Part shown: piece by piece, positions 1,048 to 38,814 of the stretch
How the letters are laid out: every line of letters starts with the position of its first letter
Position numbering within the stretch: position 1 is the stretch's first letter
Assembly (NCBI GenBank): GCA_958295875.1
Contig: OY282379.1
Span: 2,569,046 to 2,633,045, forward strand
Length of the DNA: 64,000 nt
Source of the DNA: an uncultured Pseudomonadales bacterium
GTDB taxonomy: Bacteria; Pseudomonadota; Gammaproteobacteria; Pseudomonadales; Azotimanducaceae
Reading direction: 5' to 3'
Position numbers and translations under genes: made by a program
Notes under the pieces: generated by a model
Told to the model about the DNA's origin: nothing
The model's input: the letters and a program-made list of their open reading frames with translations, nothing else
The model's database searches: none

Positions 1048-2193
1048 ATGCACGAAGACGACATCTGTCGAACTGCATTCGCGGATGCCGACATGACGCG
1101 CGACCTGTTGGAACTGCTGCCAGAGGACGTCACGGCCGGGCTGGACCCTCGCCGACTGCGTCGTCTGCCGACCGAGCATGTCGCTTCAGGCGGGCAGCGC
1201 CGCCGCGCCGACATGGCTTGGGCGGTTGGAACCGTCGGTGGCCGGGCAGGGCGAGGGGACGAATTGCAAGGGAGCCTTCAGCCAAGGGGCGGGACGCGCC
1301 TCCCCTCGCAAGAAGAGGCTGGCGCCGCGGCCGGGTTGAAAGGGGAGGCATTGCTGGCGCTGGAGTTCCAGTCCTCGCCGGACCGCGCCATGGCGCTGCG
1401 CATGGAGATCTATGTGGCGCTGCTGCGCCAAGAGGTGGCCGCCGAGGGCGGACTGCGCGCCGGCGACCTGCTGCCGCGGGTGTTGCCGGTGGTGGTCTAC
1501 ACGGGAGGCCGGCGCTGGCGGCCAGAGACCCTCGACGAACTGACCGCGCCGACGCCAGTGGGTTGGGGCAACTGGCAGGCGCGGTTCGAGTTCCTTTGCC
1601 TTGACGCTGCGAACTTGACGGCGGAGGATGGACGCTCGAATTCAGTCGCCGCGCTGATGCGGCTGCTGGCGAGCCGGCGGGCGGAATCCGTGCCGGCGAT
1701 GGCGAAGGCGCTGTTCGAGGGGCTGCGGCCGGCCGGTTCGGGCACGGAGCGTCAGGCGTTTGCGAATAGACTGGCGCGGGCGCTGATGCAAATGCTGATC
1801 GCCCGCTTCGCCGGCGACGAGGAGAGCGACCGGCACCGACACCACATGCAGCAGGCGCTGCGTTACATGGAGGAACCCACCATGCTCGCCGAGGCAATCA
1901 CCGAATGGCGGCAGAACGCGATTGCGGAGGGTAGAACCGAGGGCAGAACTGAGGGGAGAGCCGAGGGCTTGAGGGAAGGCACGTCCGAGGGCAGGAGGAC
2001 ACTGCTACGGCGCTTGGCCGCCCGGCGCTTTGGCCTTGAGGCGGGGGACGAGTTCAGCTGGCTCCTAGCGGACGAAGAGGATGCCGATCGGCTGGCGCTT
2101 GCCGGCGACCTAGTGATCGACTGCTCAAGCGCGGAAGAATTGCTGCGCCGGGCGCGACGCTTGCTGAGGGGTGGCGACGGCGAAATGCGCTAG
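1048..2193 (+). CDS. Rpn family recombination-promoting nuclease / putative transposase (YhgA-like PD-(D/E)XK) with DUF4351-like C-terminal module, paralog type 1
   Basis: N-terminus MHEDDICRTAFADADMTRDLLELLP and core LLALEFQSSPDRAMALRM are typical of YhgA-like proteins. EGRT-type repeats are followed by LLRRLAARRFG...AEELL. The ATG at 1048 inside ORF 892..2193 was chosen from family N-terminal architecture. Confidence 0.75.
   Translation: MHEDDICRTAFADADMTRDLLELLPEDVTAGLDPRRLRRLPTEHVASGGQRRRADMAWAVGTVGGRAGRGDELQGSLQPRGGTRLPSQEEAGAAAGLKGEALLALEFQSSPDRAMALRMEIYVALLRQEVAAEGGLRAGDLLPRVLPVVVYTGGRRWRPETLDELTAPTPVGWGNWQARFEFLCLDAANLTAEDGRSNSVAALMRLLASRRAESVPAMAKALFEGLRPAGSGTERQAFANRLARALMQMLIARFAGDEESDRHRHHMQQALRYMEEPTMLAEAITEWRQNAIAEGRTEGRTEGRAEGLREGTSEGRRTLLRRLAARRFGLEAGDEFSWLLADEEDADRLALAGDLVIDCSSAEELLRRARRLLRGGDGEMR
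1869..1884 (+). promoter_or_regulatory. Internal in-frame ribosome-binding site plus ATG inside Rpn gene (candidate start of a small C-terminal Rpn protein)
   Basis: GGAGGA at 1869..1874, a 7-nt spacer, then ATG at 1882, in frame with the 1048 start. The same SD-7nt-ATG geometry recurs at 25277/25290 and 37705/37718 in the other Rpn paralogs. Confidence 0.45.
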
Positions 2194-2425: not shown

Positions 2426-2734
2426 ATGCTCGCCGAGGCAATCACCGAATGGCGACAAAACGCAATCGCGGAGGGTAGAACCGAGGGCAGAACTGAGGGG
2501 AGAGCCGAGGGCTTGAGGGAAGGCACGTCCGAGGGCAGGAGGACACTGTTGCGACGCCAAGCCACCCGGCGCTTCGGCCTCGAGGCGGGGGACGAGTTCG
2601 GCCGGCTCTTGGCGGACGAAGAGGATGCCGATCGGCTGGCGCTTGCCGGCGACCTAGTGATCGACTGCTCAAGCGCGGAAGAATTGCTGAGCCGAGCGCG
2701 CCGGCTGCTGAGCGACGGATCGCTTATCGGTTGA
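2426..2734 (+). CDS. Stand-alone Rpn C-terminal (DUF4351-like) module, 102 aa
   Basis: GGAGGA at 2413..2418 with a 7-nt spacer to ATG 2426. It encodes MLAEAITEWRQNAIAEG...RRQATRRFGLEAGDEF...AEELLSRARRLL, a duplicate of the last about 103 aa of 1048..2193. Expression is unproven. Confidence 0.45.
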   Translation: MLAEAITEWRQNAIAEGRTEGRTEGRAEGLREGTSEGRRTLLRRQATRRFGLEAGDEFGRLLADEEDADRLALAGDLVIDCSSAEELLSRARRLLSDGSLIG

Positions 2735-3730: not shown

Positions 3731-3783
3731 AAGGGGACACTTTAGAATTGCAGGAAGGGGACATTACTGCTTTGCGCTAACAC
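2909..3783 (-). mobile_element. Degraded ISNCY-type insertion sequence, one terminus recognisable
   Basis: The terminus at 3729..3781 carries two GGGGACA boxes followed by CTGCTTTGCGCTAAC. No matching inverted copy was seen beyond the 3-prime end of the transposase ORF. Confidence 0.5.
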
Positions 3784-21851: not shown

Positions 21852-22946
21852 CTATCCCGCCGGTTCGGGTGCGCGCCCGCCGGCCCGATGTGCGCCCAAC
21901 TCGTCCTCGCCGCCGCTGGCCCGCCGGTGTGGCTGCCGCGCAGCGACGTCGCGCAACTCGCGCAAAAGCCCCGGGCCCCTGAACACCAAGCTGGTGTAAA
22001 TCTGCAGGAGGTCTGCTCCGGCATCGAACATGGCCTGCGCCGTATGGCCATCATGGATGCCGCCCACGCCGATGATGGGGAACTCGGGCCCCAAAGCGCC
22101 GCGCAACGTGCGCACGGCCTGCATCGCCAGCGGGAACAGTGGGGTGCCGCTCAAGCCACCTGCCTGCGCCGCGAAGCTGGGCTTGAGGGTGGCGGGGCGA
22201 CGGATGCTGGTGTTGGTGGCGATGACGCCATCCAAGCGCGTGTTCCGCAGCACCGCGGCGATCTCTTGCAAGCCGTTCGCGTCCAGGTCTGGCGACACCT
22301 TCGCCACCAAGGGAACGTGGCGCCCGCTTGCGGCGTCGAGCGCATCCCGCTCGCGGACGACCGCGCCGAGCAGGGTGCTGGCGGGTCTGGTCGATTGCAG
22401 CGAGCGCAGGCCGACGGTGTTCGGCGAGGAGAGGTTCAGCGTCACATAGTCTGCGTATGGATGGACGGCGCGCAGGCATGTGAGGTAATCCTGCGTCGCG
22501 CTCGCCAACGGCGTGGCTTGGTTCTTGCCGATGTTCACTCCCAGCTTGGCGGCGAGCGGCCCGCGGCGGCGCAGCCGCGCCAAGCGCGCTCGCATGGCTT
22601 CGACGCCGGCGCTGTTGAACCCCAAGCGGTTGATGAGGGCTGCATCGGCAGCGGAGCGGAACAGGCGCGGGCGAGGGTTGCCAAACTGCGGCCGAGGCGT
22701 CACGGTGCCCACTTCCACAAAGCCGAAGCCGAGGCTGGCGAAGCCGCGCGGCGCCAGCGCGTCCTTGTCGAGCCCCGCTGCGAGGCCGATGCGGTTCGAG
22801 AACGAGATGCCCATGATGTTGATGCCGCGGACGGGCGCTCGGCGTTGCGGCGCCACGCTTCCCCACGCGGCCATCGCGCTCACCGCCAATCGGTGCGCGG
22901 CCTCTGGGGGCAGCGCGAAGAGCAGTTGGCGCAGCAGCGGATACAC
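21852..22946 (-). CDS. pyrD: Dihydroorotate dehydrogenase (quinone)
   Basis: (V)YPLLRQLLFALPPEAAHRL, GLAAGLDKD, GFGFVEVGTVTP, NLSSPNT and GGLSG are class 2 DHODH motifs. GTG at 22946 is in frame within the 673-aa ORF; the upstream part of that ORF is not DHODH-like. Confidence 0.85.
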   Translation of the reverse strand: MYPLLRQLLFALPPEAAHRLAVSAMAAWGSVAPQRRAPVRGINIMGISFSNRIGLAAGLDKDALAPRGFASLGFGFVEVGTVTPRPQFGNPRPRLFRSAADAALINRLGFNSAGVEAMRARLARLRRRGPLAAKLGVNIGKNQATPLASATQDYLTCLRAVHPYADYVTLNLSSPNTVGLRSLQSTRPASTLLGAVVRERDALDAASGRHVPLVAKVSPDLDANGLQEIAAVLRNTRLDGVIATNTSIRRPATLKPSFAAQAGGLSGTPLFPLAMQAVRTLRGALGPEFPIIGVGGIHDGHTAQAMFDAGADLLQIYTSLVFRGPGLLRELRDVAARQPHRRASGGEDELGAHRAGGRAPEPAG

Positions 22947-23087
22947 GGGCGCGGCGGCGGACGCCTCGTTTTCGCAGGATGGCCGGATGATAGCCCTGAA
23001 GCCCGCGGCGGCGTCGCGCAGCGTGTCAAGATGCGTCCCGCGACCATGCGCTGAAGGCAAACGGAACCTTGGCGCGCGCGTTGGCCG

Positions 23088-24245
23088 ATGTGGTGGTTGG
23101 CGTCCCAGGGGAGGCGCGCTGCGGCCGGGCGTGGTGATGGCGGCGGTGAACCCTTGACTGCACGGCGCGTCACGTTGACGGCGAAGGCCGAGAGTTGGCC
23201 GATCGCCGGCACCTTCAACATTGCCCGCGGTGCCAAGACGCAAGCGGACGTGGTGGTGGCGACGGTGAACGACGGCGCGTTCACGGGGCAGGGCGAGTGC
23301 GTGCCTTATCCGCGTTATGGCGAGACCGTGGGCGGCGTCGTCGAGGAGATTGAAGCCTTCGCGGCAGGTTTGGTTGCGGGTGCGGAGGTGACGGATGCGG
23401 CGCGGCTGCGCGGCGCCCTGTTGCAGGCGTTGCCAGCAGGGGCCGCCCGCAACGCGGTGGACTGCGCGTTGTGGGATTTGCAAGCCAAGCAGTCTGGCAG
23501 ACCGGTGTGGGAGCTTGCTGGCGTGCCGGCGCCGCCGCCGGTCGTCACTGCCTACACGCTGAGCTTGGGCAGCCCCGCGGCGATGGGTGAGGCAGCTCGG
23601 CGCCATGCTGGGCGACGCTTGCTCAAAGTGAAGTTGGGCGGTGGCCCGCAGGACGACATCGAACGCTTGCGGGCGGTGCGGCGCGGGGCGCCGGCAGCGC
23701 GTCTCATCGTGGACGCGAACGAGGGCTGGTCCATGCGAGACCTGCGTGTCGTCGCGCCCGCCGCGGCCGAACTTGGCGTGGCGCTCATCGAGCAGCCGCT
23801 GCCCGCCGCTGCCGACGATGCCCTCATCGGCTATCAATCGCCCGTGCCGCTCGGCGCGGATGAGAGTTGCCACGGAGACTTCGGCTTAGCCGCTCGGTCG
23901 GCGGACGCGGCCGGTGGTGCGGCAGACGCGGCCGGCCGCTCGGCCGGATTGGCAACCCTGGCCGCCAAGTACGCCGTGCTCAACGTCAAGCTGGACAAGG
24001 CCGGCGGCCTCACCAGTGCGCTCGCCCTCGCCGCGCAGGCGCGTTCCCACGGCGTCGGCGTGATGATCGGGTGCATGGTCGCCACCTCGCTGGCCATGGC
24101 GCCGGCGCTCCTGTTGGCAGATGGCGCACGCTTTGTGGACCTTGACGGGCCGCTGCTCTTGGCCCAAGACCGCCCAGAAGGGCTCGTCTACGCCGGGCAA
24201 ACCGTGGCCCTGCCGCCCCGTGGGGGCTGGGGCCGGCCTGAGTAG
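23088..24245 (+). CDS. Enolase-superfamily dipeptide epimerase (L-Ala-D/L-Glu epimerase-like)
   Basis: ESWPIAGTFNIARGAKTQADVVVATV..GQGECVPYPRYGET and VNVKLDKAGGLT resemble YcjG-type epimerases. The true start is probably TTG at 23154, judged from the family N-terminus. Confidence 0.75.
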   Translation: MWWLASQGRRAAAGRGDGGGEPLTARRVTLTAKAESWPIAGTFNIARGAKTQADVVVATVNDGAFTGQGECVPYPRYGETVGGVVEEIEAFAAGLVAGAEVTDAARLRGALLQALPAGAARNAVDCALWDLQAKQSGRPVWELAGVPAPPPVVTAYTLSLGSPAAMGEAARRHAGRRLLKVKLGGGPQDDIERLRAVRRGAPAARLIVDANEGWSMRDLRVVAPAAAELGVALIEQPLPAAADDALIGYQSPVPLGADESCHGDFGLAARSADAAGGAADAAGRSAGLATLAAKYAVLNVKLDKAGGLTSALALAAQARSHGVGVMIGCMVATSLAMAPALLLADGARFVDLDGPLLLAQDRPEGLVYAGQTVALPPRGGWGRPE

Positions 24246-24539
24246 GCGTGTGCTCGGGCTCGGCCTCGCCATCTTCGTGTTCCGGGCACTGTTCCCTCGC
24301 GGCAGGACCGGCGCATGTGCGTCGCCTTGGGCACCACACACGTCGGCGAGATCGATGATTGTCCCTACGGTAGCTGGATGCGCACAGCAGCGTTCCAAAG
24401 CGAGGCCGGCCTGCTGCCTTGGCATGGCAGATGTCTTTGATTTGCGTGAGACATCCGCCCGGCGTGGCGTTTGGGCGGGAATTGGCCCGGTGGATGGCGC
24501 ACAGTTGGCACCCCGCAGCCCGACGCCGCCGGAAGACCG

Positions 24540-25607
24540 ATGCAGGCCAGCGACGCGCCGTACAAGGTGCTGTTCCAAGACCGGCGCCTCTTCGAGGAGA
24601 CCGTGCGGCTGGTCGCCCCGCGGCTGGCCGACGGGCTGGACTTCGACGCCGCCGCGTCGCTGGACAAGGAGCACCTGACGGCGCTGGCGCGCACCCGCGT
24701 GCAGGACAAGCTGCGGCGCGTCGAGCGCAAGTCGGGGAAGCTGGCGAACGGCCGCCGCCGCTACGTCCTGGCGCTGCTCGAGTTCCAGTCCGGCCACGAC
24801 GCGGACATGGCTTGGCGGATGCGGGACTACCTGCACCTGGTGGAGTCCGGCCTGCGCCAGTCGGGCACGGCGCAGGCGGAGGGGGAGGTGCCGGGGATGC
24901 TGTCGGTCGTGGTCCACAACGGCGAGCGGCCGTGGCGGGCGTCGGCGGAGTGCGCGGGCCCGCTGACCGGCGACGCTGAGCCGGCGCAGGTGCGGATGTA
25001 TGCTACGGTGGACTTGCAGGTGCTGGCGCGGGGCGCGGACGGCGCGGGCCGGCGGCTGGTTCCGGGCGGCTGCCTGGCGACCTTGGCGGAGTTGGAGTCG
25101 TCGCCGGCGGAGGCTTTGCCGAAGCTGCTGCTGGAGGCGTTCCGGCGCCACGCTGGGGCGGGTTCGTCCGAGTTCCGCCGCGGGCTGCACCTGCGGGTGG
25201 AGTCCGCGCTGGAGCGGCGCGGTGCGGCGGCGGGCCTGCCGCCGCTGGCAGACTTCGAGCGGGCGCTCACGGAGAGAGGAGGAGAGCGGATGACGGCGAT
25301 GTTGGACGCGACGCTGGCGCGATGGGAAGAATCGAAGGTCGCGCAGGGCGTGGAGCGCGGTTTGGCTCAGGGCATTGAGCGTGGCCGGGCACAGGGGGTC
25401 GAGCGTGGCCTAGCCCAAGGGCGCGTGGCCCTGCTTGGGCGGATGGCGGAGCGGCGCTTCGGCGCGGGCGTGGCGGGCCAAGTGACGGCGCTGCTGGCGG
25501 ATGAGACGGACCTGTCGCGCCTGGACGAGGCCGGCGAATGGCTGCTCGAGTGCGACACTGGCGAGGCATTGCTCTCGCGGCTCGCAGGGCGCCCGCCACG
25601 CGGCTGA
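24540..25607 (+). CDS. Rpn family recombination-promoting nuclease / putative transposase (YhgA-like), paralog type 2, copy A
   Basis: MQASDAPYKVLFQDRRLFEETVRLVAP, LALLEFQSGHDADMAWRMRDYL and an 8-aa AQG[VI]ERG[LR] repeat are followed by ALLGRMAERRFG...GEALLSRL (DUF4351-like). Confidence 0.8.
   Translation: MQASDAPYKVLFQDRRLFEETVRLVAPRLADGLDFDAAASLDKEHLTALARTRVQDKLRRVERKSGKLANGRRRYVLALLEFQSGHDADMAWRMRDYLHLVESGLRQSGTAQAEGEVPGMLSVVVHNGERPWRASAECAGPLTGDAEPAQVRMYATVDLQVLARGADGAGRRLVPGGCLATLAELESSPAEALPKLLLEAFRRHAGAGSSEFRRGLHLRVESALERRGAAAGLPPLADFERALTERGGERMTAMLDATLARWEESKVAQGVERGLAQGIERGRAQGVERGLAQGRVALLGRMAERRFGAGVAGQVTALLADETDLSRLDEAGEWLLECDTGEALLSRLAGRPPRG
25277..25292 (+). promoter_or_regulatory. 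Internal in-frame RBS plus ATG inside Rpn gene
   Basis: AGGAGG at 25277..25282, a 7-nt spacer, then ATG at 25290, in frame (codon 251). It would give a 105-aa C-terminal protein, MTAMLDATLARW.... Confidence 0.5.
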
Positions 25608-25707
25608 CGGCAAGCGCGATGGCCTGCGCCTGTGCATGGAGTCCGCGCTGAAGCGTTGGGGCTTGGCAGCGGGACCGCGGGCGCTCGCGGAGAGAGGAGG
25701 AGAGCGG

Positions 25708-26061
25708 ATGACGGCGATGTTGGACGCGACGCTGGCGCGGTGGAAAGAAGCGGAGGTCGCGCAGGGACGGGCGCAGGGCATGGAACGGGGCCTTGCACAG
25801 GGCATTGAGCGTGGCCGGGCGCAAGGCATGGAACAAGGCTTGGCGCGAGGCGTGGAACGGGGCCTAGCCCAAGGGCGGGTGGCCCTGCTTGGCCGGATGG
25901 CGGAGCGGCGCTTCGGCGCGGGCGTGGCGGGCCGTGTGACGGCGCTGTTGGCGGACGAGACGGACCTGCCGCGCCTGGATGAGGCCGGCGAATGGCTGCT
26001 CGAGTGCGACACCGGCGAGGCGCTGCTCGCGCGGCTCGCAGGGCGTCAGCCACACGGCTGA
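25708..26061 (+). CDS. Stand-alone Rpn C-terminal (DUF4351-like) module, 117 aa
   Basis: AGGAGG at 25695..25700, a 7-nt spacer, then ATG at 25708. MTAMLDATLARWKEAEVAQG... duplicates the last about 105 aa of 24540..25607 but has more 8-aa repeats. Confidence 0.5.
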   Translation: MTAMLDATLARWKEAEVAQGRAQGMERGLAQGIERGRAQGMEQGLARGVERGLAQGRVALLGRMAERRFGAGVAGRVTALLADETDLPRLDEAGEWLLECDTGEALLARLAGRQPHG

Positions 26062-26145
26062 CGGCGAGCGCCAAAGTAGAGCTGTTGGCGCTTCAGGTCC
26101 CGCTTCGGGGGATCCGAACACTCTGCATGAGTCTAAACGGGTGCC

Positions 26146-26841
26146 TCAGCACAGTTGGCGAGCCAAGTCTCGGTAATCCTCGGCGCGGATGTCGAAGGCG
26201 TCGGTGGCGCCGCGGCTTCCCGCCTCCTTGAGCTTGGGTTTGACGTACGCCGTCTTCAGCCCCGCCTTGGCAGCGGCTGCGAGATCTGGCGGATGCACGG
26301 CCACCATCATCGTCTCTTCCGGCTCGGCGCCGAGCAACCGGGCGGCGGTCTGGTACGCCGCCGCTTCCGGCTTGTAGACGCCCAAGAACTCGCAAGACAA
26401 ACACGCATCCCAATCGATGCCGGCGTGTTTGGAGCTATCCACGACAATGGACAGCGAAAGCACCGTGAGAATTGCCACGACATAACGTTCACGCAGCCGC
26501 AGCAACGCATCCGGCACATCCTCCCAAACGCCCATGCGATGCCAAGCGCGATTCAGCTGGTCGCGGTCCGCCACAGTGAGCTTCAGCACCGGGAACTGCT
26601 CGGCGAGTTCATCTAGCACAGCCCGGTGAATCTGATCCGCGTTTTGCCAAGGCCGCGCACCGGAGCGCACTTCCGCAAGCTGCTCGAACATGCGCCGCCG
26701 CCAGGTAGACGCGAACGCCGCGTCGTCCACCGCCACATTGCGCGCCTGGGCGAGCTCGCGCACGGCGCCGCGAGTGGCAGTTTGCCAATCAAAAATGCTG
26801 CCGCCGACATCGAACGTCAGCGCCTTGATGCCCTCGATCAT
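26146..26841 (-). CDS. Haloacid dehalogenase type II-like HAD hydrolase
   Basis: An ALTFDVGGSIFDW motif I-like N-terminus and a size of about 230 aa fit the family. The C-terminal part is MMVAVHPPDLAAAAKAGLKTAYV. Confidence 0.7.
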   Translation of the reverse strand: MIEGIKALTFDVGGSIFDWQTATRGAVRELAQARNVAVDDAAFASTWRRRMFEQLAEVRSGARPWQNADQIHRAVLDELAEQFPVLKLTVADRDQLNRAWHRMGVWEDVPDALLRLRERYVVAILTVLSLSIVVDSSKHAGIDWDACLSCEFLGVYKPEAAAYQTAARLLGAEPEETMMVAVHPPDLAAAAKAGLKTAYVKPKLKEAGSRGATDAFDIRAEDYRDLARQLC

Positions 26842-26856
26842 ATGTTGCCACCTCGC

Positions 26857-27129
26857 TCAAGAAACCCCGGACGCTATTTTGGAACTCGCGTAGCGACGGC
26901 GCGGCCAAGTGCGCGCGTGGCGATGAACCACCGCACGGCTGCGTGTGCTCACATCGAACAGCCGGGTCGCCGCCAGCGCCATGGCAACGTCATCGCGCCC
27001 CTCTCGAACATAGTACCAATGCAATAACTGTGCATCGTCGATCTTGCGGTGCGCGTCGGCGTCCCACGCAGACGCTCCACGCTGCTCGTCATCCACAGCG
27101 CCGTAGCCAACGTCGGCGGGCTGATTCAC
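26857..27129 (-). CDS. Hypothetical small protein
   Basis: This 90-codon ORF lies between two same-strand genes and has plausible codon usage. No recognisable motif was found. Confidence 0.25.
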   Translation of the reverse strand: MNQPADVGYGAVDDEQRGASAWDADAHRKIDDAQLLHWYYVREGRDDVAMALAATRLFDVSTRSRAVVHRHARTWPRRRYASSKIASGVS

Positions 27130-27259
27130 CGATCCGTGGTGACGAGTTAGCCCCGACGGCCACCGGCATCATCGTGGCTTAGGCGAAATGATTGGCGGTG
27201 CCGTGGGCTGTGACGCTGGCTGGCGCCACTTGCCGAGCGCAGAGCATCGAAACCGTGCC

Positions 27260-28858
27260 CTACGTCTCACCCATCGGCGCAGCGCGGGGTTTGGCGGTGA
27301 TGCTGTCTGGCGCCGGCATCGAGGAACCCGGCAACGACAACGTGCCGCGCAGGTAGGCGTCCCACTGTTCGCCCAGCCGCTCTACGCTTGCTGCGCCGAA
27401 CACCACCCGGTCTGGCTTTGCGAGCAGCGCCGGTGCGTCGCCGAGCATCCGCTTCAGCCAGCCGGATTCGTCTTGGACGCGGATCTGATCGTGTTGCGCA
27501 TTGTCGAGGCTGGCCACGCTGATGCCGGGAAATCGTGCCCGAAAGGCTTGCACCTCCGCCGCCGCGGCGTCGCCGTTGGCAAGCACGAGCAGTGGCCTGA
27601 AGCCCGCCACGTCATCAACGCGGAGTGCTCCTGCGCCGGCGACCATCGGTTCCGGCATCGGCTTGCCGGCGCTTCGGTCGTCCAACACCCCGCTTTCGAT
27701 GTAGGGCATGGATGGGAACGGCGGAGGACGTCCAGCGGCGAGGTCCGCCAGCATCTTGCGATCGCGCTCGGCGGCTTTGGCCTCGTCCGCCACGCAAACG
27801 ATCTTGCCGAGGGCGATGGCGCCGCGGGTGATGGCGGCGACATGAGGCGCCCGTTCGCCCTGCACCGTGTCAAGGAACGGAAGCGCCACGTCGCCACGCA
27901 ACACGGCGGCGAGTTTCCACGCTAAGTTGTAGGCGTCGCGCACGCCGGAGCAGAGCCCTTGGCCCATGAACGGCGGCATCTGATGCGCGGCGTCGCCGAT
28001 GAGCACGATGCGGCCTGCTCGCCACTGGCGTGCCAGCAGGCCGTGGAACTCGTAAACGGCGCTGCGCTCCAGTTGGATGCTGTCCGTGTCCACCCAAGGG
28101 GCTAGACGCGCCTTCAGCGTCTCCGCGGCGGTGGCTTCGGCGTGGTCTTCATCTGGGCGGAGCATGAACTCCCAGCGGTGGCGGCCGGGGCTGGACGGCA
28201 CCGATGTGGTCGGCTGCGCGGGGTCGCATAGCTGGGTGCTGACCTTCGCTAGCCGGCGCATGCCCCGCGGCAGTTTGACGTCCACCACCACCCACGGTTC
28301 GTCGAAGCCGAGGTCCACCATGTCGATGCCCAAGGCTTGGCGGACGAAGCTCCGCGCACCGTCGCAACCGACGGCGTAGGCGGCGCGCACTCGCTCTGTT
28401 CCACGCTGCGTCTCCACCGCCGCCACAACGCCGTCGTCATCTTGCTCGATGTTCACGGCTTTGGCGCCGAGGTCGACTTTGACGTTCTTAAGCTCCTTGA
28501 GGCGGCCCCGCAACGCGGACTCCAAACTCGGTTGGTGGAACATGTTGGTCCACGGGTATCCGGTTGGCGCGACGCCGGGCGGCGGATAGCGCGACATCAG
28601 CACTTCGCGGTCGCGGTTGACGAACTCGTAGCCCTCCCCGGCGCAGCTGTTCGCCAGCACCGCGTCCGCCACGCCGACGAAGTTCAGCAAGCGCAGCACT
28701 TCGTGATCGATCTGCACGGCGCGCGGCAGTTTGTAGATGGCGGTGTCTTTCTCGACCGCGCGCACACGCAGGCCGAGCGTCGCGCACAACGCCGCCAGCA
28801 CCGCGCCGACGGGGCCTAAGCCGACGACCAGCAGGTCACACTGTTGCGCTGTCGCCAT
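27260..28858 (-). CDS. FAD-dependent aromatic-ring monooxygenase (MhpA / 3-hydroxyphenylpropionate hydroxylase-like)
   Basis: It has DLLVVGLGPVGAVLAA (GxGxxG), CDGARSFVR and RIVLIGDAAHQMPPFMGQGLCSGVRDAYNLAWKL. Confidence 0.85.
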   Translation of the reverse strand: MATAQQCDLLVVGLGPVGAVLAALCATLGLRVRAVEKDTAIYKLPRAVQIDHEVLRLLNFVGVADAVLANSCAGEGYEFVNRDREVLMSRYPPPGVAPTGYPWTNMFHQPSLESALRGRLKELKNVKVDLGAKAVNIEQDDDGVVAAVETQRGTERVRAAYAVGCDGARSFVRQALGIDMVDLGFDEPWVVVDVKLPRGMRRLAKVSTQLCDPAQPTTSVPSSPGRHRWEFMLRPDEDHAEATAAETLKARLAPWVDTDSIQLERSAVYEFHGLLARQWRAGRIVLIGDAAHQMPPFMGQGLCSGVRDAYNLAWKLAAVLRGDVALPFLDTVQGERAPHVAAITRGAIALGKIVCVADEAKAAERDRKMLADLAAGRPPPFPSMPYIESGVLDDRSAGKPMPEPMVAGAGALRVDDVAGFRPLLVLANGDAAAAEVQAFRARFPGISVASLDNAQHDQIRVQDESGWLKRMLGDAPALLAKPDRVVFGAASVERLGEQWDAYLRGTLSLPGSSMPAPDSITAKPRAAPMGET

Positions 28859-28960
28859 GATCTAGGCTCTCGCCACCGCCCGCTCTCTCGATTTGGCCAC
28901 AATCAAATGTAGGCGCAGCGTCCCATGCAGGAACGCCATGCGGAAACGGCACCCGGCGCG

Positions 28961-29608
28961 TTAACGCGAGGGCTTCATGCCGGCGGCGGCCGCGTCCTCG
29001 CGCGCTTTGGCGGCTTGGAAGCTAGCGCGTTGCTGCACACGATCGATGAGTGGCGGGATGTTGGCGTACTGCTGCGTCGGGAAGCCGGCGGAGGCTGCCG
29101 TCGTGAGCAGCCAGCAGAGGTAGACGTCCACAATCGACCATTGCTCGCCGTACCACCACGGGTTGCCGTCCAGCCGGGAGTCGATTTGGGCGCACATGCC
29201 GTGCAAGGTCTCGCGCCCCTTGGCTTGCACGCCGCTCGGGTCGCCGTCCGTGTAGCGGATGGGCATGCGCACCTGGCGAACCGCCGGATGAACGGTGCCG
29301 GAGCACCACATGAGGTCTGAGATTTGTCCGGCCCGTGCCATCGGCGCATCGACCTCTGGCAGCAGCCGCGCCGCCGGGGCGATGTCATGGAGATACAGCA
29401 CGATGGCGGCATTCTCCGTGAGCACCCGGCCGTCCACCGCCAGCGCCGGCACCTTGCCGCCGGGATGGATGGCGAGGTACTCAGGCTGTTTCTGCTCGCC
29501 GGTGACGAGGTTGACCACTTGGTCCTCATAGTCCAAACCGGCCTCTTCGAGCGCGTTCATGGAGACCCGCGAGCAAGCGCCAGGACAGTGATAGAGCTTG
29601 AGTTTCAT
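28961..29608 (-). CDS. Glutathione S-transferase
   Basis: It has MKLKLYHCPGACSRVSMNALEEAGLDYE and GGKVPALAVDGRVLTENAAIVLYL (the GST N-terminal thioredoxin-like motif). Confidence 0.85.
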   Translation of the reverse strand: MKLKLYHCPGACSRVSMNALEEAGLDYEDQVVNLVTGEQKQPEYLAIHPGGKVPALAVDGRVLTENAAIVLYLHDIAPAARLLPEVDAPMARAGQISDLMWCSGTVHPAVRQVRMPIRYTDGDPSGVQAKGRETLHGMCAQIDSRLDGNPWWYGEQWSIVDVYLCWLLTTAASAGFPTQQYANIPPLIDRVQQRASFQAAKAREDAAAAGMKPSR

Positions 29609-29859: not shown

Positions 29860-31043
29860 GCGGGGTGAGGTGGCGCTGGCGACGGGAACCCGCCGCCAGC
29901 GCCGGATCGGGTAGCCTCAGTGAATGCGAAGTCACTGGTGGAGACCCGAGCCATGCGAATCGAATCGATGCGGATCAGATCGTACCGCAGTTTCAGGGTG
30001 GACGACGCCGAACTGCCGGCCGAGGCCCGCGGGCGCCTGTCGGCGATCCGCCGGTTCGATGGGCTGCGCGCCGCCGGCTGCGCCGAGCGCGCCGCCTTGA
30101 GGGAGGTCGGCGTCAGCCGCCGCACCCTGTATCGGTGGAAGGCCGCGCTGGCCGCCGGCGGCCAGCGCGGCCTCGCGCCGAAGTCCACCCGACCGCGCCG
30201 CGTCCGCCGCCCGGCGCGCAAGCCGGGCGACGTGAAGGCGGTCATGGCCATGCGCCGCAAGCACCCGTTCATGGGCAAGGCGCCCATCCAGCGCATGCTC
30301 GAACGCCAAGGCCTGCGGCTGAGCGCGTCAACCGTCGGGCGCATCCTCTCGCGCGCCATCGCGGACGGGACCGTGCCCCCCGCCAGCCTCTGCGAAGGAC
30401 GGGCCAAGCCCAAGCGCCCCCGCAAGTTCAACGGCTGGGCGCGGCGCTGGAAATACGGCGACAAGGCCGAGCGCCCGGGCCAGCTCGTCCAGATCGACCA
30501 CATGACCGTCTCCCGCGACGGCAGCTCCATCAAGGAGTTCCGCGCCATCTGCCCCGTCAGCCGGTTCATGGTCGCCCGCGCCTTCTCCCGCGCCACCGCC
30601 GCCACCGCAGCGCGCTTCCTCGCCGTCGTCGCCGAAGCCCTCCCCGTGCCGCTGGAGTCCGTCCAGGTCGACGGCGGCAGCGAGTTCATGGCCGGCTTCG
30701 AGGACGCCTGCAGGAACCTCGGCGTCGCGCTGCGCGTCCTGCCGCCGCGACGGCCGCAGTGGAACGGCTGCGTCGAGCGCGCCAACCGCACCGCCCGCAT
30801 CGAGTTCTGGAACCTCCTCGACTGCGACCTCACCGTCGAGGCCGTCTCCGAGAGGCTCCTCAAGCGCGAGTTCTTCTACAACTACATCCGACCGCACTCC
30901 GCAATCGACTACCGATCCCCCAACGAGTACCTTGTCGCCCACGAGGCTGCCCAGCCTCAGTGCCAGATGTCATGAACCGGTTCAGCCCCTTGACCTCGCG
31001 GGAGCCTTGGCGCTAGGTTGCGGTCGGCCAATTGGACTCACAG
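29860..31043 (+). mobile_element. IS481-family insertion sequence (boundaries tentative)
   Basis: It carries a single transposase ORF. Weak terminal inverted similarity exists (GGTGAGG... at the left, ...ACTCACAG at the right). A possible 5-bp direct repeat CGATG lies at 29855..29859 and 31044..31048. Confidence 0.4.
29920..30975 (+). CDS. IS481-family transposase (DDE integrase core)
   Basis: HTH region: VGVSRRTLYRWKAALAAGGQRGLAPKSTRP. DDE core: LVQIDHMTV, VQVDGGSEFM, RPQWNGCVERANRT. Confidence 0.85.
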   Translation: MNAKSLVETRAMRIESMRIRSYRSFRVDDAELPAEARGRLSAIRRFDGLRAAGCAERAALREVGVSRRTLYRWKAALAAGGQRGLAPKSTRPRRVRRPARKPGDVKAVMAMRRKHPFMGKAPIQRMLERQGLRLSASTVGRILSRAIADGTVPPASLCEGRAKPKRPRKFNGWARRWKYGDKAERPGQLVQIDHMTVSRDGSSIKEFRAICPVSRFMVARAFSRATAATAARFLAVVAEALPVPLESVQVDGGSEFMAGFEDACRNLGVALRVLPPRRPQWNGCVERANRTARIEFWNLLDCDLTVEAVSERLLKREFFYNYIRPHSAIDYRSPNEYLVAHEAAQPQCQMS

Positions 31044-31045
31044 CG

Positions 31046-32392
31046 ATGCCAGATAGCCAGCTAGATTGGCGGAAGCTCCTCTGCTCGACGCGGCGGAAGG
31101 AGATCGCACGAAAACGACACTGCGGTCAAGCCGCATCCGCCGGCACCCACGTCTGCGCCGAAGAGATTGAGCACGATTACGACAGGATCCTTTCCTCGAC
31201 CTCAACGCGTCGGCTGGCTGACAAGACGCAACTCTTCCCTCCTGACACGAATCGCTCTATTAGTACCCGTTTAACGCACTCGCTCGAGGTCAGCAACTTA
31301 GCCCGCAGCATCGGCGTTCGGCTTGCCCATGATCATCGCCACGACGTGTTTGGCGAGCTTGCCGACAAGCTGCAAGCGGAACGAACGGTTCCCGCGTTGC
31401 TAGCTGCCGCGGGCCTTGCACACGACCTCGGCACTCCACCTTTCGGCCATCCAGGCGAAAAGGCCATTCGCCTGTGGTGCAAGACCCGCGGCATCAAACT
31501 CAAGGATTTTGCCGAGTTCGACAGCAATTGCCAGACGTTCCGCCTCCTGACGCGCCTTCAGATCCTTGACGGCAATTTCGGCCTAGACCTGACGTGCGCC
31601 ACGCTCGCCACGTCGCTCAAGTACCCAGCCTTCTCCAACGACCTAAGTGGCTTCAAGAAGTTCGGGATTTTTGAACGCGAGCGCAACATAGCTCACGAAG
31701 TATGGGATCAAACCGGCCTCGCCGAGGGGGTGCGGCACCCTTTGGCCTACATCGTGGAAGCATGCGACGACATTGCTTACTCCGTAATGGACGTCGAAGA
31801 CATCGTAAGAATGGGCTACGCATCCTGCAACAACGTAATGGATTTCCTTGCGCAAAGTTCAGATGCCAAGACTAAAGCCGTGAGGAAAAGAACCCTAAAT
31901 GAGTGTAAGGTGTTTGCAAGTAAGAAGAGCCAGCGGCATTTGGATGAGCAATCTATGCTGGTGTTTAGGACCATTTCCATTTCTGAGATGATAGAATCGA
32001 TTACTAGAACGTTCGTTTCCCATATCGATCAGATACTCAAGGGAGAAGTAGATGGCGAATACAAGCTCGTTCCAAAATCCGACGTTGCGGAACTCTGTTG
32101 CCGGCTTAAGAAGTTTGGTAGACGTAGAGGATTCGAGCATCGAGATATATGTCAGCGGGCGATGAAGGACAAGAAGCAGGTCAGAGAAACGATGGATTAC
32201 CTCTGGTGTGGCATCGCGAATCCGGATCGAGGTAGCGCTTATTCGCGCCTGCCTGAGATTGACCGTCGAGCGTACGAAGTGACCTCTCGTTCTTGGTCCG
32301 ACAAGTTGCACCTGCTATGCGACACCGTTGCGAGCATGACGAATAGCGAACTGATCTCTTTACGCGACGACCTCAAAGGCATTCTGCAGTAG
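31046..32392 (+). CDS. dGTPase-family HD-domain deoxynucleoside triphosphate triphosphohydrolase-like protein
   Basis: LDWRKLLCSTRRKE is a Dgt-type N-terminus. RLTHSLEVSNLARSIG and GLAHDLGTPPFGHPGE are HD motifs, and ACDDIAYSVMDVED is also present. The GC content is visibly lower than the flanks. Confidence 0.8.
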   Translation: MPDSQLDWRKLLCSTRRKEIARKRHCGQAASAGTHVCAEEIEHDYDRILSSTSTRRLADKTQLFPPDTNRSISTRLTHSLEVSNLARSIGVRLAHDHRHDVFGELADKLQAERTVPALLAAAGLAHDLGTPPFGHPGEKAIRLWCKTRGIKLKDFAEFDSNCQTFRLLTRLQILDGNFGLDLTCATLATSLKYPAFSNDLSGFKKFGIFERERNIAHEVWDQTGLAEGVRHPLAYIVEACDDIAYSVMDVEDIVRMGYASCNNVMDFLAQSSDAKTKAVRKRTLNECKVFASKKSQRHLDEQSMLVFRTISISEMIESITRTFVSHIDQILKGEVDGEYKLVPKSDVAELCCRLKKFGRRRGFEHRDICQRAMKDKKQVRETMDYLWCGIANPDRGSAYSRLPEIDRRAYEVTSRSWSDKLHLLCDTVASMTNSELISLRDDLKGILQ

Positions 32393-32419
32393 TAGCACGT
32401 CTTGATCGCAACGAGCGTA

Positions 32420-33343
32420 TCAGGAGATCTCGCCAAGAGAGTTGCCCAAAAGAAACACTAGTACGAGTACCACCGGCAAAATAGTCCATCTCCCCCAAAT
32501 GGCATCGCGCAAAACAAGCATTAGGGCGGAAGTAGAGAGTGCGAGTGATAGAGCAATTGCCCCAATTCGGACCCAAGCGCTTAACTCAGGAATGGACTGT
32601 AGGGCATCACTTTCACGACCGACCAAAACAGCAAACAAGACTCCGAGCAATGTAATGACGAGCGTAGAGAAGTAGACCGCTTGTGACCTAACATCGTCCA
32701 CTGCCTTTGCTACTTGTTTAGCGCGTTGCTCTACTTTCGTAACCCTTTCCCCGTATTGAGACAATGCGGACTCATGTGCGCCATGGGGAGCGACGCTTTC
32801 GATGTCCCGTGGGGGTAATGATTCAAAAGGCTCGCATTGAGAGGCGGTGTAAGGAGTGCTCTTTACGAAGTCGATCAGCGCAAGCTTATCGCCCCTCTTG
32901 AGCTTTACGGATCTTCTAGAGAGATTGTAAATGGGACACGCCAGCTTCCCGATGTATCCGGGGTCAACCTGCGCTGCCCCCACCCACAGCAGCCCCTTGT
33001 ATGCTAGCTTAACCTTGATGTTCCACCTTGCAATCATGAACCTAGGGATGCAGAGATGTTCTAGAGTCTCTATAACGACTACCTCGTAGGGTTCGATTTC
33101 GAAAGTGTCAGCGTCTTGCAGTTCCTCCTTTTGCAAACCGCGGAAGTAACGATCTCCAACCCGCATCTGGTAGCCAGCTGGCTCAAGGCTGTCCCTAGAG
33201 AAGGGATGTATCATGCAATGGCTGTCGACGTAGCATTCTATCCGATTGCTGAGCAGCACGCCGTATTCGGACGGATAGGGGTCATATTCTAAGGTACGGA
33301 GGTCGACCTTAGATACGCTATTCGGGCGGACTGCGGCCATCAT
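32420..33343 (-). CDS. dCTP deaminase / dUTPase-fold protein with C-terminal coiled-coil and three TM helices
   Basis: The Dcd-like core is LLSNRIECYV...IHPF...LEPAGYQMRVG...IEPYEVVVIETLE...VDPGYIGKLACPIYN...LKRGDKLALIDF. The C-terminal TM segments are AVYFSTLVITLLGVLFAVLVG, WVRIGAIALSLALSTSALMLVL and WTILPVVLVLVFLLG. Confidence 0.7.
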   Translation of the reverse strand: MMAAVRPNSVSKVDLRTLEYDPYPSEYGVLLSNRIECYVDSHCMIHPFSRDSLEPAGYQMRVGDRYFRGLQKEELQDADTFEIEPYEVVVIETLEHLCIPRFMIARWNIKVKLAYKGLLWVGAAQVDPGYIGKLACPIYNLSRRSVKLKRGDKLALIDFVKSTPYTASQCEPFESLPPRDIESVAPHGAHESALSQYGERVTKVEQRAKQVAKAVDDVRSQAVYFSTLVITLLGVLFAVLVGRESDALQSIPELSAWVRIGAIALSLALSTSALMLVLRDAIWGRWTILPVVLVLVFLLGNSLGEIS

Positions 33344-34441
33344 TCAGACTCCAGTTAGGCTCGTCGTTTGCAGCAGTGAACGGTCATGTCTGCGTGTGTT
33401 GTTAGCGTCAATGCTCGTGCGCGTATCGAAATCTGAACGTGGCACCAGCTTGGTGGGTGACGTTCCGACCCAATCGAATGTCCTCCCGATGCTCGCTTCA
33501 AACGAGGCGACAGTGACTTCCCACGACGGGGGCAGGGTAGTGGCGGCGGCCGTCTGATCAAAGTAGTCTACATGATTAAGCACTAGGTGGGTCGCGCCGT
33601 TGGCGTCAATAGCCTCCTTAACGATGGCTGGATCGAATCGTGCCACGCGGCGGACGCACTTGGTCACCGATGAAAGCTCGGATAGGTGCGCGCGACCACA
33701 ATTGATGCCGATAGTGCGCCAGTCGGTCTCGAATGGCAGCGGGCCGGAGTTGCCGCTCACTCGGATCGGGAAGGCCCGCGCAACGAGGACAATGCAGTCA
33801 ACCTCAACAGGGCTAAGTCCGGCTTCGGCGACGAACGCGGCGGCAGTGGTATTGCGGCTCGTAACGTAGGGGTAATGGCTCGATAGAAGGTTGGAGAGCC
33901 CGAAGCCTTGTGTGCCCTCGATTAGAACACGCTCTCCGCGATCCAAGGCGGCCCGGATCAGCGGGCGGGTGGGCCGAACGAAACGGGCGATATAGCTATC
34001 GTCGGAAGCCCAATGCACGGCGTTGGAACGTGAGACTCGATCCATTACTGCTGCGCCCGTGCCGCTAGCGGTCGATCCGATCCGAGCCCTAAGCGCTGAG
34101 CTTCTCTCCTTGCTCTTATGCTCGTCGGTGATGACCATCGCACGTGGATCTATCACCAGCCTGTCTCGAGGGAGGTCGATGCGCTCCACGTCTTGCCGCA
34201 GCGCTTCGGCGTCAATGTAGGAGCCGGGGCCGAGCACGCATAGGGTATCTTGAAGGAGCGCGGCTGTTGGGAGGTGGCGGAAAACATGCCGGCGACCATC
34301 GCTGCCGTAGGCCGTATGGCCAGAGTTTGAGCCGCCCACGCGGATAACAATCGTGGCCTGTTGGTGCTGCGCCAAGAACAGCGCGACCTTGCCCTTGCCC
34401 TCAGAGCCAAACTGGGCGCCGGCTACCACGGTTACGGGCAT
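33344..34441 (-). CDS. Adenylosuccinate synthetase (PurA) family protein, divergent, PurZ-like active-site substitutions
   Basis: By-eye alignment to E. coli PurA gives these matches: FGSEGKGK vs PurA GDEGKGK; GGSNSGHT vs GGHNAGHT; IGSTASGTG vs IGTTGRGIG; EGTQGFGL...YPYVTS vs EGAQG...YPYVTS. ATG at 34441 overlaps the upstream stop by 10 nt. Its stop abuts the next ATG. Confidence 0.75.
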   Translation of the reverse strand: MPVTVVAGAQFGSEGKGKVALFLAQHQQATIVIRVGGSNSGHTAYGSDGRRHVFRHLPTAALLQDTLCVLGPGSYIDAEALRQDVERIDLPRDRLVIDPRAMVITDEHKSKERSSALRARIGSTASGTGAAVMDRVSRSNAVHWASDDSYIARFVRPTRPLIRAALDRGERVLIEGTQGFGLSNLLSSHYPYVTSRNTTAAAFVAEAGLSPVEVDCIVLVARAFPIRVSGNSGPLPFETDWRTIGINCGRAHLSELSSVTKCVRRVARFDPAIVKEAIDANGATHLVLNHVDYFDQTAAATTLPPSWEVTVASFEASIGRTFDWVGTSPTKLVPRSDFDTRTSIDANNTRRHDRSLLQTTSLTGV

Positions 34442-36637: not shown

Positions 36638-36727
36638 TGGCGGAGAGGCAGGGATTCGAACCCTGGGTGCCCAAAGGACACACCTGATTTCGAGTCAGGC
36701 CCGTTCGACCAACTCCGGCACCTCTCC
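36638..36727 (-). tRNA. tRNA-Ser (anticodon CGA), CCA encoded
   Basis: A 90-nt cloverleaf was folded by hand. Acceptor: GGAGAGG/CCTCTCC. Anticodon arm: CCTGA-CTCGAAA-TCAGG. Long variable arm: GTGTCC-TTT-GGGCAC. T arm: CAGGG-TTCGAAT-CCCTG. Confidence 0.9.
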
Positions 36728-36967
36728 GAGGCGCATTCTGCGCCAAGCTGCCACATGAGCGCAACGAGCCAGCGATGGGGGGCGGGGGCGAAGCGGGGTG
36801 GCGTCCGTGGGCGTGGGTATGGATCACGGAGGCCGGTCCGCTGCCTTGGCATGGCAGATGTCTTTGATTTGCGTGAGACATCCGCCCGGCGTGGCGTTTG
36901 AGCGGGAATTGGCCCGCCGGATGGCGCACAGTTGGCACCCCCGCAACCCCGACGACGCCCGAACCCG

Positions 36968-38119
36968 ATGCAGGCCAGCGACGCGCCGTACAAGGTGCTG
37001 TTCCAAGACCGGCGCCTCTTCGAGGAGACCGTGCGGCTCGTCGCCCCGCGGCTGGCCGACGGGCTGGACTTCGGCGCCGCCGCGTCGCTGGACAAGGAGC
37101 ACCTGACGGCGCTGTCGCGCACCCGCGTGCAGGACAAGCTGCGGCGCGTCGAGCGCAAGTCGGGGAAACTGGCGAACGGCCGCCGCCGCTACGTCCTGGC
37201 GCTGCTCGAGTTCCAGTCCGGCCACGACGCGGACATGGCTTGGCGGATGCGGGACTACCTGCACCTGGTGGAGTCCGGGCTGCGGCAGTCGGGCACGGCG
37301 CGGGCGGAGGGGGAGGTGCCGGGGATGCTGTCGGTCGTGGTCCACAACGGCGAGCGGCCGTGGCGGGCGTCGGCGGAGTGCGCCGGCCCGCTGACCGGCG
37401 ACGCTGAGCCGGCGCAGGTGCGGATGTATGCTACGGTGGACTTGCAGGTGCTGGCGCGGGGCGCGGACGGCGCGGGCCGGCGGCTGGTTCCGGGCGGCTG
37501 CCTGGCGACCTTGGCGGAGTTGGAGTCGTCGCCGGCGGAGGCCTTGCCGAAGCTGCTGCTGGAGGCGTTCCGGCGCCACGCTGGGGCGGGTTCGTCGGAG
37601 TTCCGCCGCGGGCTGCACCTGCGGGTGGAGTCCGCGCTGGAGCGGCGCGGTGTGGCGGCGGGCCTGCCGTCGCTGGCAGATTTCGAGCGGGCGCTCACGG
37701 AGAGAGGAGGAGAGCGGATGACGGCGATGTTGGACGCGACGCTGGCGCGGTGGAAAGAAGCAGAGGTCGCGCAGGGCGTGGAGCGGGGCTTGGCTCAGGG
37801 CATTGAGCGCGGCCGGGCGCAAGGCATGGAACAAGGCTTGGAGCGCGGTTTGGCCCAAGGCGTGGAGCGCGGTTTGGCTCAGGGCATTGAGCGTGGTCGG
37901 GCACAGGGCGTTGAGCGTGGCCTAGCCCAAGGGCGCGTGGCCCTGCTTGGGCGGATGGCCGAGCGGCGCTTCGGCGCGGGCGTGGCGGGCCGTGTGGCGG
38001 CGCTGTTGGCGGACGAGACGGACCTGTCGCGCTTGGACGAGGCCGGCGAATGGCTGCTCGAGTGCGAGACTGGCGAAGCGCTGCTCGTGCGGCTCCGAGG
38101 GCGTCCGCCCCAAGGCTGA
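36968..38119 (+). CDS. Rpn family recombination-promoting nuclease / putative transposase (YhgA-like), paralog type 2, copy B
   Basis: It is near-identical to 24540..25607 over the first 250 codons, then carries a longer AQG[VIM]E[RQ]G[LR] repeat tract before the DUF4351-like end. Confidence 0.8.
   Translation: MQASDAPYKVLFQDRRLFEETVRLVAPRLADGLDFGAAASLDKEHLTALSRTRVQDKLRRVERKSGKLANGRRRYVLALLEFQSGHDADMAWRMRDYLHLVESGLRQSGTARAEGEVPGMLSVVVHNGERPWRASAECAGPLTGDAEPAQVRMYATVDLQVLARGADGAGRRLVPGGCLATLAELESSPAEALPKLLLEAFRRHAGAGSSEFRRGLHLRVESALERRGVAAGLPSLADFERALTERGGERMTAMLDATLARWKEAEVAQGVERGLAQGIERGRAQGMEQGLERGLAQGVERGLAQGIERGRAQGVERGLAQGRVALLGRMAERRFGAGVAGRVAALLADETDLSRLDEAGEWLLECETGEALLVRLRGRPPQG
37705..37720 (+). 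promoter_or_regulatory. Internal in-frame RBS plus ATG inside Rpn gene
   Basis: AGGAGG at 37705..37710, a 7-nt spacer, then ATG at 37718, in frame (codon 251). Confidence 0.5.
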
Positions 38120-38215
38120 CGGCAAGCGCCATGGCCTGCGCCTGGAGTCCGCGCTGAAGCGTGGGGCTTGGCAGCGGGGCTACCGCGGGCGCTCGCGGAG
38201 AGAGGAGAAGAGCGG

Positions 38216-38509
38216 ATGACGGCGATGTTGGACGCGACGCTGGCGCGATGGAAAGAAGCGGAGGTCGCGCGGGGCGTGGAGCGTGGCTTGGCCCAGGGCG
38301 TTGAGCGTGGCCTAGCCCAAGGGCGCGTGGCCCTGCTTGGCCGGATGGCGGAGCGGCGCTTCGGCGCGGGCGTGGCGGGCCGTGTGACGGCGCTGTTGGC
38401 GGACGAGACGGACCTGTCGCGCTTGGACGAGGCCGGCGAGTGGCTGCTTGAGTGCGACACTGGCGAAGCGCTGCTTGCGCGGCTCGGAGGGCCTCCACCG
38501 TGCGGCTGA
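38216..38509 (+). CDS. Stand-alone Rpn C-terminal (DUF4351-like) module, 97 aa
   Basis: AGGAGA at 38203..38208, a 7-nt spacer, then ATG at 38216. It encodes MTAMLDATLARWKEAEVARG...LLGRMAERRFG...GEALLARL. Confidence 0.5.
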   Translation: MTAMLDATLARWKEAEVARGVERGLAQGVERGLAQGRVALLGRMAERRFGAGVAGRVTALLADETDLSRLDEAGEWLLECDTGEALLARLGGPPPCG

Positions 38510-38814
38510 CGGTGAGCGCTGTGGGCTGCGCTTGCGGGTGGAGCCCTTGCGACGAGAACCATGTCCCTGGGCGAGCGTCGGCGCTGGACAGCACCCCCCG
38601 CTTGACAAACCGTCGAACCCTCAAGACCCCTACGTCAAAGCCCACGGCCGCTGCCCGTCACAGCGGCCCCAGCTGACAAAAACGGTCGCACCTTGCCGCT
38701 GCAAAGAACCGCGCCAATCGAGCGCAACCATCCCACCCCGTGGTTTGACTCGCGGTGCCAAACGTCGCCTAATGCCCGCATTGAGCCACGAGCCGCGAGC
38801 TAGGGAGCGGGCGC

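Follow-up and report, generated by a model that had tools for sequence, protein, structure and literature searches.

The window, by which we mean the whole 64-kb stretch of DNA that was analyzed, contains exactly three rpn genes and three extra C-terminal modules, as determined by a tblastn search of the three proteins against it. PF04754 (Transposase_31, YhgA-like) matches rpnL1, rpnL2, and rpnL3 above its gathering score of 21 (38.4, 25.7, and 25.2 bits, with E values of 1.3e-9, 1e-5, and 1.5e-5, respectively), and NCBIfam TIGR01784 gives a weak match to rpnL1 that falls below its cut-off. Residues D57, E82, and Q84 ('LEFQS' block) are invariant in an alignment of 31 sequences and are present in all three window proteins. 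This D...LEFQS block corresponds to the conserved acidic/ExQ motif of the PD-(D/E)XK type, and the three proteins are predicted nucleases.

The first gene, rpnL1 (1048..2193, + strand), represents paralogue type 1 of the Rpn/YhgA-like nucleases and carries the EFQS catalytic-motif block. Its reading frame is open from 892, and the gene callers used for its relatives start at the equivalent of 1093; the ATG at 1048 is the likely start. Paralogue type 2 comprises rpnL2 (24537..25607, +; 356 aa from MQASD, in a frame open from 24471), which has homologues at 89–94% in related metagenome-assembled genomes (MAGs), and rpnL3 (36965..38119, +; 384 aa). The type 1 gene shares ∼30% identity with the type 2 genes, and the N-terminal parts of rpnL2 and rpnL3 are 96% identical in DNA. 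As rpnL2 and rpnL3 are close paralogues, the three loci amount to two independent paralogue types. Paralogy between rpnL2 and rpnL3 begins ∼135 nt 5' of the start codons (24402-24537 versus 36829-36965), so that a shared upstream, possibly promoter-bearing, region was duplicated along with the gene. A tRNA-Ser(cga) gene (36638-36727, − strand) lies ∼240 nt upstream of rpnL3. Scanning 24300–26300 for sigma-70 promoters and terminators returned none between rpnL2 and its downstream module, a result that is uninformative for a high-GC uncultured host.

Downstream of every rpn gene, on the same strand, lies a diverged direct copy of that gene's 3' end, ∼0.4 kb long and 83–93% identical in DNA, with BLAST E values (1e-99 to 1e-179) far beyond chance. 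The direct repeats and the tblastn matches agree with the first-pass annotation, made from the sequence alone, that every Rpn gene here precedes a copy of its own C-terminal module, and the ORFs it assigned to the copies (2426..2734, 25708..26061, and 38216..38509) exist and are intact. The layout likewise occurs, as it had reported, in two divergent paralogue types, type 1 at locus 1 and type 2 at loci 2 and 3. At locus 1 the repeat pairs 1749-2168 with 2294-2712 (92.9% over 420 nt, E 2e-179). The core of the locus 2 repeat pairs 25259-25617 with 25677-26071 (82.5% over 395 nt), with alignment gaps confined to the region of four-amino-acid repeats (tetrads) and weaker homology reaching back to 25182/25621, and the locus 3 repeat pairs 37618-38144 with 38135-38534 (80–90%). 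The type 1 module is 93% identical in amino acids to its own gene versus ∼40% to the type 2 modules. The repeats had been described as lying immediately downstream of the stop codon; this holds at loci 2 and 3, whose second unit begins 13 nt past the rpn stop and adjoins the first without a gap (first unit 25182-25620, second 25621..26073, +, at locus 2; first unit 37604-38127, second 38128..38516, +, at locus 3), but not at locus 1, where ∼100 nt of poorly conserved, non-aligning spacer separate the copies. An orthologue of locus 1 in a related genome shows an original unit of ∼600 nt that begins at the equivalent of 1668, and the locus 1 spacer is therefore read as the decayed 5' part of a longer unit.

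The downstream ATGs (2426, 25708, and 38216) are duplicates of in-frame ATGs within the genes (1882, 25290, and 37718). A GGAGGA or AGGAGG hexamer occupies positions −13 to −8, leaving a 7-nt spacer, at all six starts (three internal and three downstream), which bears out the earlier observation that the copies retain the internal Shine–Dalgarno (SD) and ATG with identical spacing. An internal translation start has been demonstrated for E. coli RpnS (PMC10400941), and by analogy 1882 is the predicted internal start of RpnS1 (1882..2193, +; five tetrads), with GGAGGA at 1869-1874, 7 nt before the ATG. The in-gene RpnS2 frame (25290..25607, +; 105 aa, six tetrads) has AGGAGG 7 nt upstream, and the in-gene RpnS3 frame (37718..38119, +; 133 aa, 13 tetrads) lies inside rpnL3. 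The stand-alone modules are rpnSs1 (2426..2734, +; 102 aa, five tetrads), rpnSs2 (25708..26061, +; 117 aa, nine tetrads), which sits inside the second unit of locus 2, and rpnSs3 (38216..38509, +; 97 aa, four tetrads), for which a public collection calls the same protein as a gene (P0126). The last module of locus 3 is followed by ∼30 nt (38517..38546, +; GGGCTGCGCTTGCGGGTGGAG) that match the start of the repeat unit.

An AF2 model of the module (pLDDT 90) is all-helical, with one long helix (residues 2-69) and three short helices. The tetrads start at residue ∼17-20 of the small protein, within the long first helix. The fold reference was the crystal structure of RpnA-S, a helical bundle with a long first helix. 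A Foldseek search of the PDB with the AF2 model found no match at E ≤ 0.001, nor any below E 1, the very long first helix probably defeating the search, and PDB searches with one module or with a 43-sequence profile returned only a low-complexity match to a rhoptry protein and a marginal match to FlgN/FliJ, neither of them relevant. Aligning the module profile to the single YpaA sequence with hhalign gave a non-significant E value of 0.12, with the expected 'LL.RM.E..F' motif aligned. The tetrad regions of 25708-26061 and 2426-2734 also draw sub-threshold matches to FliH (NCBIfam) and Yae1_N (Pfam), which are spurious; FliH-like matches of the modules in NCBIfam and PADLOC were rejected as products of the repeat region, and such matches account for the naming of some public homologues as 'flagellar biosynthesis protein FliH'.

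The C-terminal end had also been called DUF4351-like. PF14261 (DUF4351) matched none of the window ORF proteins at E ≤ 1 and none of the modules alone at E ≤ 0.01 (Pfam). A phmmer search with a module as query identified P0213 (E 8e-8) and P0214 (E 5e-7), which themselves match PF14261 at up to 6.5e-10. The label can thus be kept in the sense of a shared motif and transitive homology, but not as a direct PF14261 match: the distant stand-alone homologues P0213, P0214, and P0256 carry PF14261, whereas the window modules do not reach the model. According to Zhong et al., some species have their stand-alone RpnS genes labeled DUF4351 (PMC10400941).

Purifying selection on the downstream ORFs

Nei–Gojobori estimates were obtained for copies separated by a dS of 0.13-0.26. 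The in-gene and downstream modules of locus 1 differ with a dN/dS of 0.09 at a dS of 0.26, and dN/dS is about 0.22-0.34 among the four type 2 modules. For the two stand-alone type 2 copies dN/dS is 0.22, falling to 0.08 when a variable tail of eight codons is left aside. The DNA duplicated upstream of the SD-ATG presents another picture: both type 2 downstream copies of the window have a deletion of 18–19 nt there, the downstream copy of an orthologous locus (L003) has a frameshift there, and homology in this region is lost at locus 1. Decay confined to the duplicated DNA 5' of the SD-ATG argues that selection acts on the small ORF itself. On these codon comparisons the small ORFs are kept by purifying selection and are not decaying pseudogenes.

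Intact downstream ORFs are present at all three window loci and at eight related ones, among them L003, L082, and L083 in close relatives. Searches of public proteins with the modules returned ∼95 clusters for type 2 and ∼40 clusters for type 1, and the matching proteins are predominantly stand-alone, of ∼75–190 aa. The start Met (MTAMLD) is common to all 43 aligned type 2 modules (39 stand-alone homologues and the window's four).

Recurrence and module number in related genomes

We surveyed 79 related loci from species-representative genomes, 74 of which have an intact gene. A self-derived module was found within 200 nt downstream at five of the 74 (L002, L003, L009, L045, and L055), and L081, L082, and L083 were added through searches with the small proteins. 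Loci with a downstream copy span Rpn lineages that are 30–90% identical to rpnL2. In every case the copy is similar to the gene that it follows, so that the duplication must have recurred independently. The layout proposed for a wider survey does therefore recur, in independent Rpn lineages.

Orthologues of the window loci allow module number to be compared directly. L003 (OY282519.1) is syntenic with window positions 21894–29057 at ∼89.5% identity and has an rpn gene with a downstream module. The left end of the window is matched in gene order by L083 (contig s944.ptg001127c), where the flanks are 97–99% identical and the rpn gene is followed by one module. The locus 1 orthologue L082 (OY282519.1, 2288-4632) has two downstream modules, with seven, six, and nine tetrads across its three modules; the tail of the first downstream module is of the in-gene type and that of the second is of the downstream type. 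The total number of modules at locus 1 is thus two in the window, two in L083, and three in L082. At L004, the orthologue of window locus 3, a single chimeric module takes the place of the two found in the window. The 5' portion of this module matches the in-gene type, down to an 18-nt segment missing from the downstream copies, and the 3' portion, like the flank, matches the downstream type. Unequal crossing-over between tandem copies is expected to yield just such reciprocal products, fusions with one module and arrays with three.

We considered the ∼30-nt motif after the last module of locus 3 as an ancestral flanking repeat that predisposes the gene to duplication. This was rejected, as blastn-short detects a unit start ∼30 nt long after the last module only at locus 3 (38517-38546) and at its orthologue L004 (4029-4058). 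Given this confinement, the simpler reading is that 38517-38546 probably represents the stump left by an earlier third unit.

A phylogeny places the four type 2 modules at similar distances from one another (9–13%), with mosaic sequences, and the tree therefore gives no order for the duplications relative to the split of rpnL2 and rpnL3. Between these two genes dS is 0.039 in the nuclease domain (24537-25286 versus 36965-37714) and ∼0.20, five-fold higher, in the C-terminal module (25290-25607 versus 37718-38119). This mosaic points to either module exchange or a gene conversion limited to the N-terminal part.

The duplications could in principle be artefacts of repeat expansion during assembly, a concern raised at the outset and one that the metagenome-assembled source makes natural. 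This reading was rejected and has next to no probability: the copies show 7–17% divergence and differences in repeat number, the layout is present at orthologues in two other independently assembled genomes (L003, L082, and L083), and finished E. coli genomes have the same layout.

Relation to rpnSs genes and the mismatch in repeat number

[quoted passage not shown] Downstream of rpnE lies ypaA, a second copy of RpnE-S ('rpnESs'), the product of which was detected by SPA tagging in E. coli, and some strains have rpnCSs downstream of rpnC (PMC10400941). The rpnSs copies cluster with their own upstream genes, indicating independent origins, and can disappear, either through deletion or when the N-terminal domain becomes fused to the rpnSs region (PMC10400941); a commentary by Koonin echoes the description (PMC10400984). 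The first-pass annotation was unaware of any account of this arrangement, which had in fact been published in 2023 as rpnSs (Zhong et al., PMC10400941). In our own comparison, the 3' end of K-12 rpnE and ypaA form a tandem repeat of 179 nt (83.8%) that includes the SD, and ypaA has one tetrad more than rpnE. RefSeq flags ypaA and its equivalents mostly as pseudogenes ('incomplete; missing N-terminus'), and newer RefSeq records name ypaA-type genes 'Rpn/YhgA-type helix-turn-helix domain-containing protein'.

The window loci resemble rpnE-ypaA and rpnC-rpnCSs in having a same-strand small gene that copies the gene's own C-terminal module, internal SD-ATG included. As at rpnE-ypaA, the copy clusters with its own gene, the four-amino-acid repeats vary, and a fusion form exists (L089 in E. 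coli, L004 here). They share with RpnL/RpnS a PF04754 domain joined to a C-terminal helical module, with tetrads 14-20 residues after an SD-preceded internal Met; in the reference system the repeats begin 8-20 residues after the Met of the small protein. The differences are that the window host belongs to an uncultured, high-GC gammaproteobacterial MAG lineage with distantly related Rpn proteins, that the duplicated unit is longer (0.45-0.6 kb versus ∼0.18 kb) and includes, 5' of the ATG, ∼90-180 nt that were once coding, that all three rpn genes of the 64-kb window carry a copy, and that the orthologous locus L082 carries two downstream copies. Toxicity, internal initiation, and phage defense are, for the window genes, putative properties.

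At the level of gene layout and motifs, the window loci have every feature that characterizes rpn–rpnSs, and the downstream genes are very likely rpnSs genes. The architecture is already in the literature, and the window loci are further examples of it, now outside E. coli in a distant gammaproteobacterial lineage that is uncultured; they show that it arises repeatedly, is kept by selection, and varies between one and three copies among closely related genomes.

We consider it highly probable that each locus is an rpnL/rpnS phage-defense toxin-antitoxin gene followed by an rpnSs gene, as in E. coli rpnE-ypaA. On the alignments given above, the copies originated by tandem duplication of the rpn 3' end. 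The final 0.45-0.6 kb of the gene was duplicated, and since the C-terminal module was copied along with its internal ribosome-binding site and ATG, the copy became a free-standing small gene. The small ORF is kept by purifying selection and the duplicated DNA 5' of its SD-ATG decays; between strains, the number of modules (one, two, or three) and of four-amino-acid repeats in the long first helix changes, the copy-number variants presumably arising by unequal homologous recombination between the copies. By analogy with E. coli, we infer a translated small protein made up of a long helix and a small helical bundle; the long helix would pair with the identical domain in RpnL or RpnS and thereby modulate the toxic nuclease.

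Tetrads were counted between fixed anchors in 12 pairs of in-gene and downstream modules, drawn from the window, the related MAG loci, and K-12. The counts differ in 11 of the 12, the sole match being window locus 1 (5/5, in-gene versus downstream, compared with 6/9 at locus 2 and 13/4 at locus 3). Differences in module length are always multiples of four amino acids, with three to 13 tetrads across modules. At the E. coli rpnE-ypaA loci sampled (L080 and L084-L089), the counts for rpnE and ypaA are 0/1, 5/1, 5/2, 8/4, 8/6, and 5/2, and so differ in all six genomes that have both copies (K-12 and five from a similarity search); the seventh, L089, has a fused single module. The overall mismatch is 17 of 18 pairs (11/12 and 6/6, with K-12 listed in both groups). 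None of the downstream modules of the window equals the in-gene count of another window locus.

A mismatch of one repeat abolishes neutralization for RpnC (Zhong et al. 2023, PMC10400941). Taken with the tetrad counts, this rule predicts that the downstream copies at loci 2 and 3 would not neutralize the adjacent RpnL, and if it applies to all Rpn proteins, a spare cognate antitoxin is not what rpnSs can be. Even so, the mismatched RpnSs is conserved as a protein. The first-pass annotation had suggested an extra, separately expressed antitoxin-like copy; this accords with the published reading of rpnSs and fits the purifying selection and the conserved SD-ATG, but that the downstream copy neutralizes its own upstream RpnL is in our view doubtful. 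With a downstream copy, the small protein is no longer bound to the co-variation that is obligatory for RpnL and RpnS. Zhong et al. state in their main text that RpnSs proteins vary in repeats, and we found no mention there of a systematic mismatch between in-gene and downstream copies (PMC10400941); with respect to that main text, the mismatch may go beyond what has been published. Solving this puzzle would clarify the role of the decoupled small protein.

Alternative readings and neighboring genes

The mismatch prompts two related proposals. If the RpnC rule is general, the tandem array may hold alternative lengths of the dimerization helix, to be exchanged by recombination with the 3' end of the gene (compare the fusions L004 and L089 and the triplication L082) or to act on a partner other than the adjacent RpnL; either would add a layer of diversification or cross-regulation atop the published gene-within-gene system, a reading that we regard as unlikely. 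A narrower version, also of low probability, treats the downstream modules as a reservoir of C-terminal modules with different helix lengths, recombination of which would swap the 3' end of rpnL and with it toxin/antitoxin specificity, making them a cassette-type device for diversification in place of an additional antitoxin. The latter draws on the mismatch in nearly all pairs, on the one-module fusion of in-gene and downstream sequence at L004 and the similar fusion in E. coli L089, on the three modules of L082, and on the contrast in dS between the modules and the N-terminal domains of rpnL2 and rpnL3. Fusions and triplications are, however, ordinary unequal crossing-over products of any tandem repeat, and fusions were already noted by Zhong et al. 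(PMC10400941); moreover, a silent store needs neither a conserved SD-ATG nor purifying selection on the protein, and YpaA is made in E. coli (PMC10400941). The mismatch and the dS contrast are compatible with a reservoir or exchange role, without demonstrating one. The notion of a recombination cassette or footprint in the first-pass annotation has some support: copy-number variants and a fusion do exist at orthologues, although generic unequal crossing-over would yield these too.

Recombination may instead have been promoted by RpnL itself, independently of RecA, the duplications then being its footprints and not those of ordinary unequal crossing-over. Zhong et al. raised the possibility that RpnL initiates the recombination that creates rpnSs copies (PMC10400941), and the event recurs independently in many Rpn lineages. 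The junctions do not require such a mechanism: at loci 2 and 3 one unit runs straight into the next, and the 30-nt motif is specific to locus 3 and best read as a third-unit stump; sequence alone does not tell the two mechanisms apart, and we hold RpnL-promoted recombination to be rather improbable. That the copies are non-functional leftovers of tandem duplication, as the RefSeq labeling of ypaA and its equivalents implies, would suit their patchy occurrence (about five of 74 related loci) and the loss of the second module at L004. It is nevertheless very unlikely in view of the intact downstream ORFs at every locus examined in the window and the eight related loci, a dN/dS well below 1 at a dS of 0.13-0.26, decay limited to the DNA upstream of the SD-ATG, and a start Met conserved in 43 aligned modules. 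An rpnSs gene maintained downstream of a gene-within-gene rpnL/rpnS remains the reading that we favor.

Just downstream of rpnSs1, an ORF on the opposite strand (2909-3730, −) encodes a transposase-type HTH (HTH_29/28/23). L082 has a related HTH gene upstream of its orthologous rpn, and L083 lacks a counterpart to part of the HTH stretch (about 3172-3763), which suggests that a mobile element adjoins locus 1. Directly upstream of the tRNA-Ser gene and Rpn locus 3, a nucleotide-metabolism-like cluster (30932-36552) looks like a defense island. It has a dGTPase (PADLOC E 1.5e-65), a dCTP-deaminase-like gene, a short adenylosuccinate-synthetase/PurZ-like gene (NCBIfam PurZ 239 bits, against a cut-off of 300), and a 706-aa protein with RNase_H_2 and AAA_33. 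At least the right-hand part of the cluster (from 33965) is conserved in OY282519.1.
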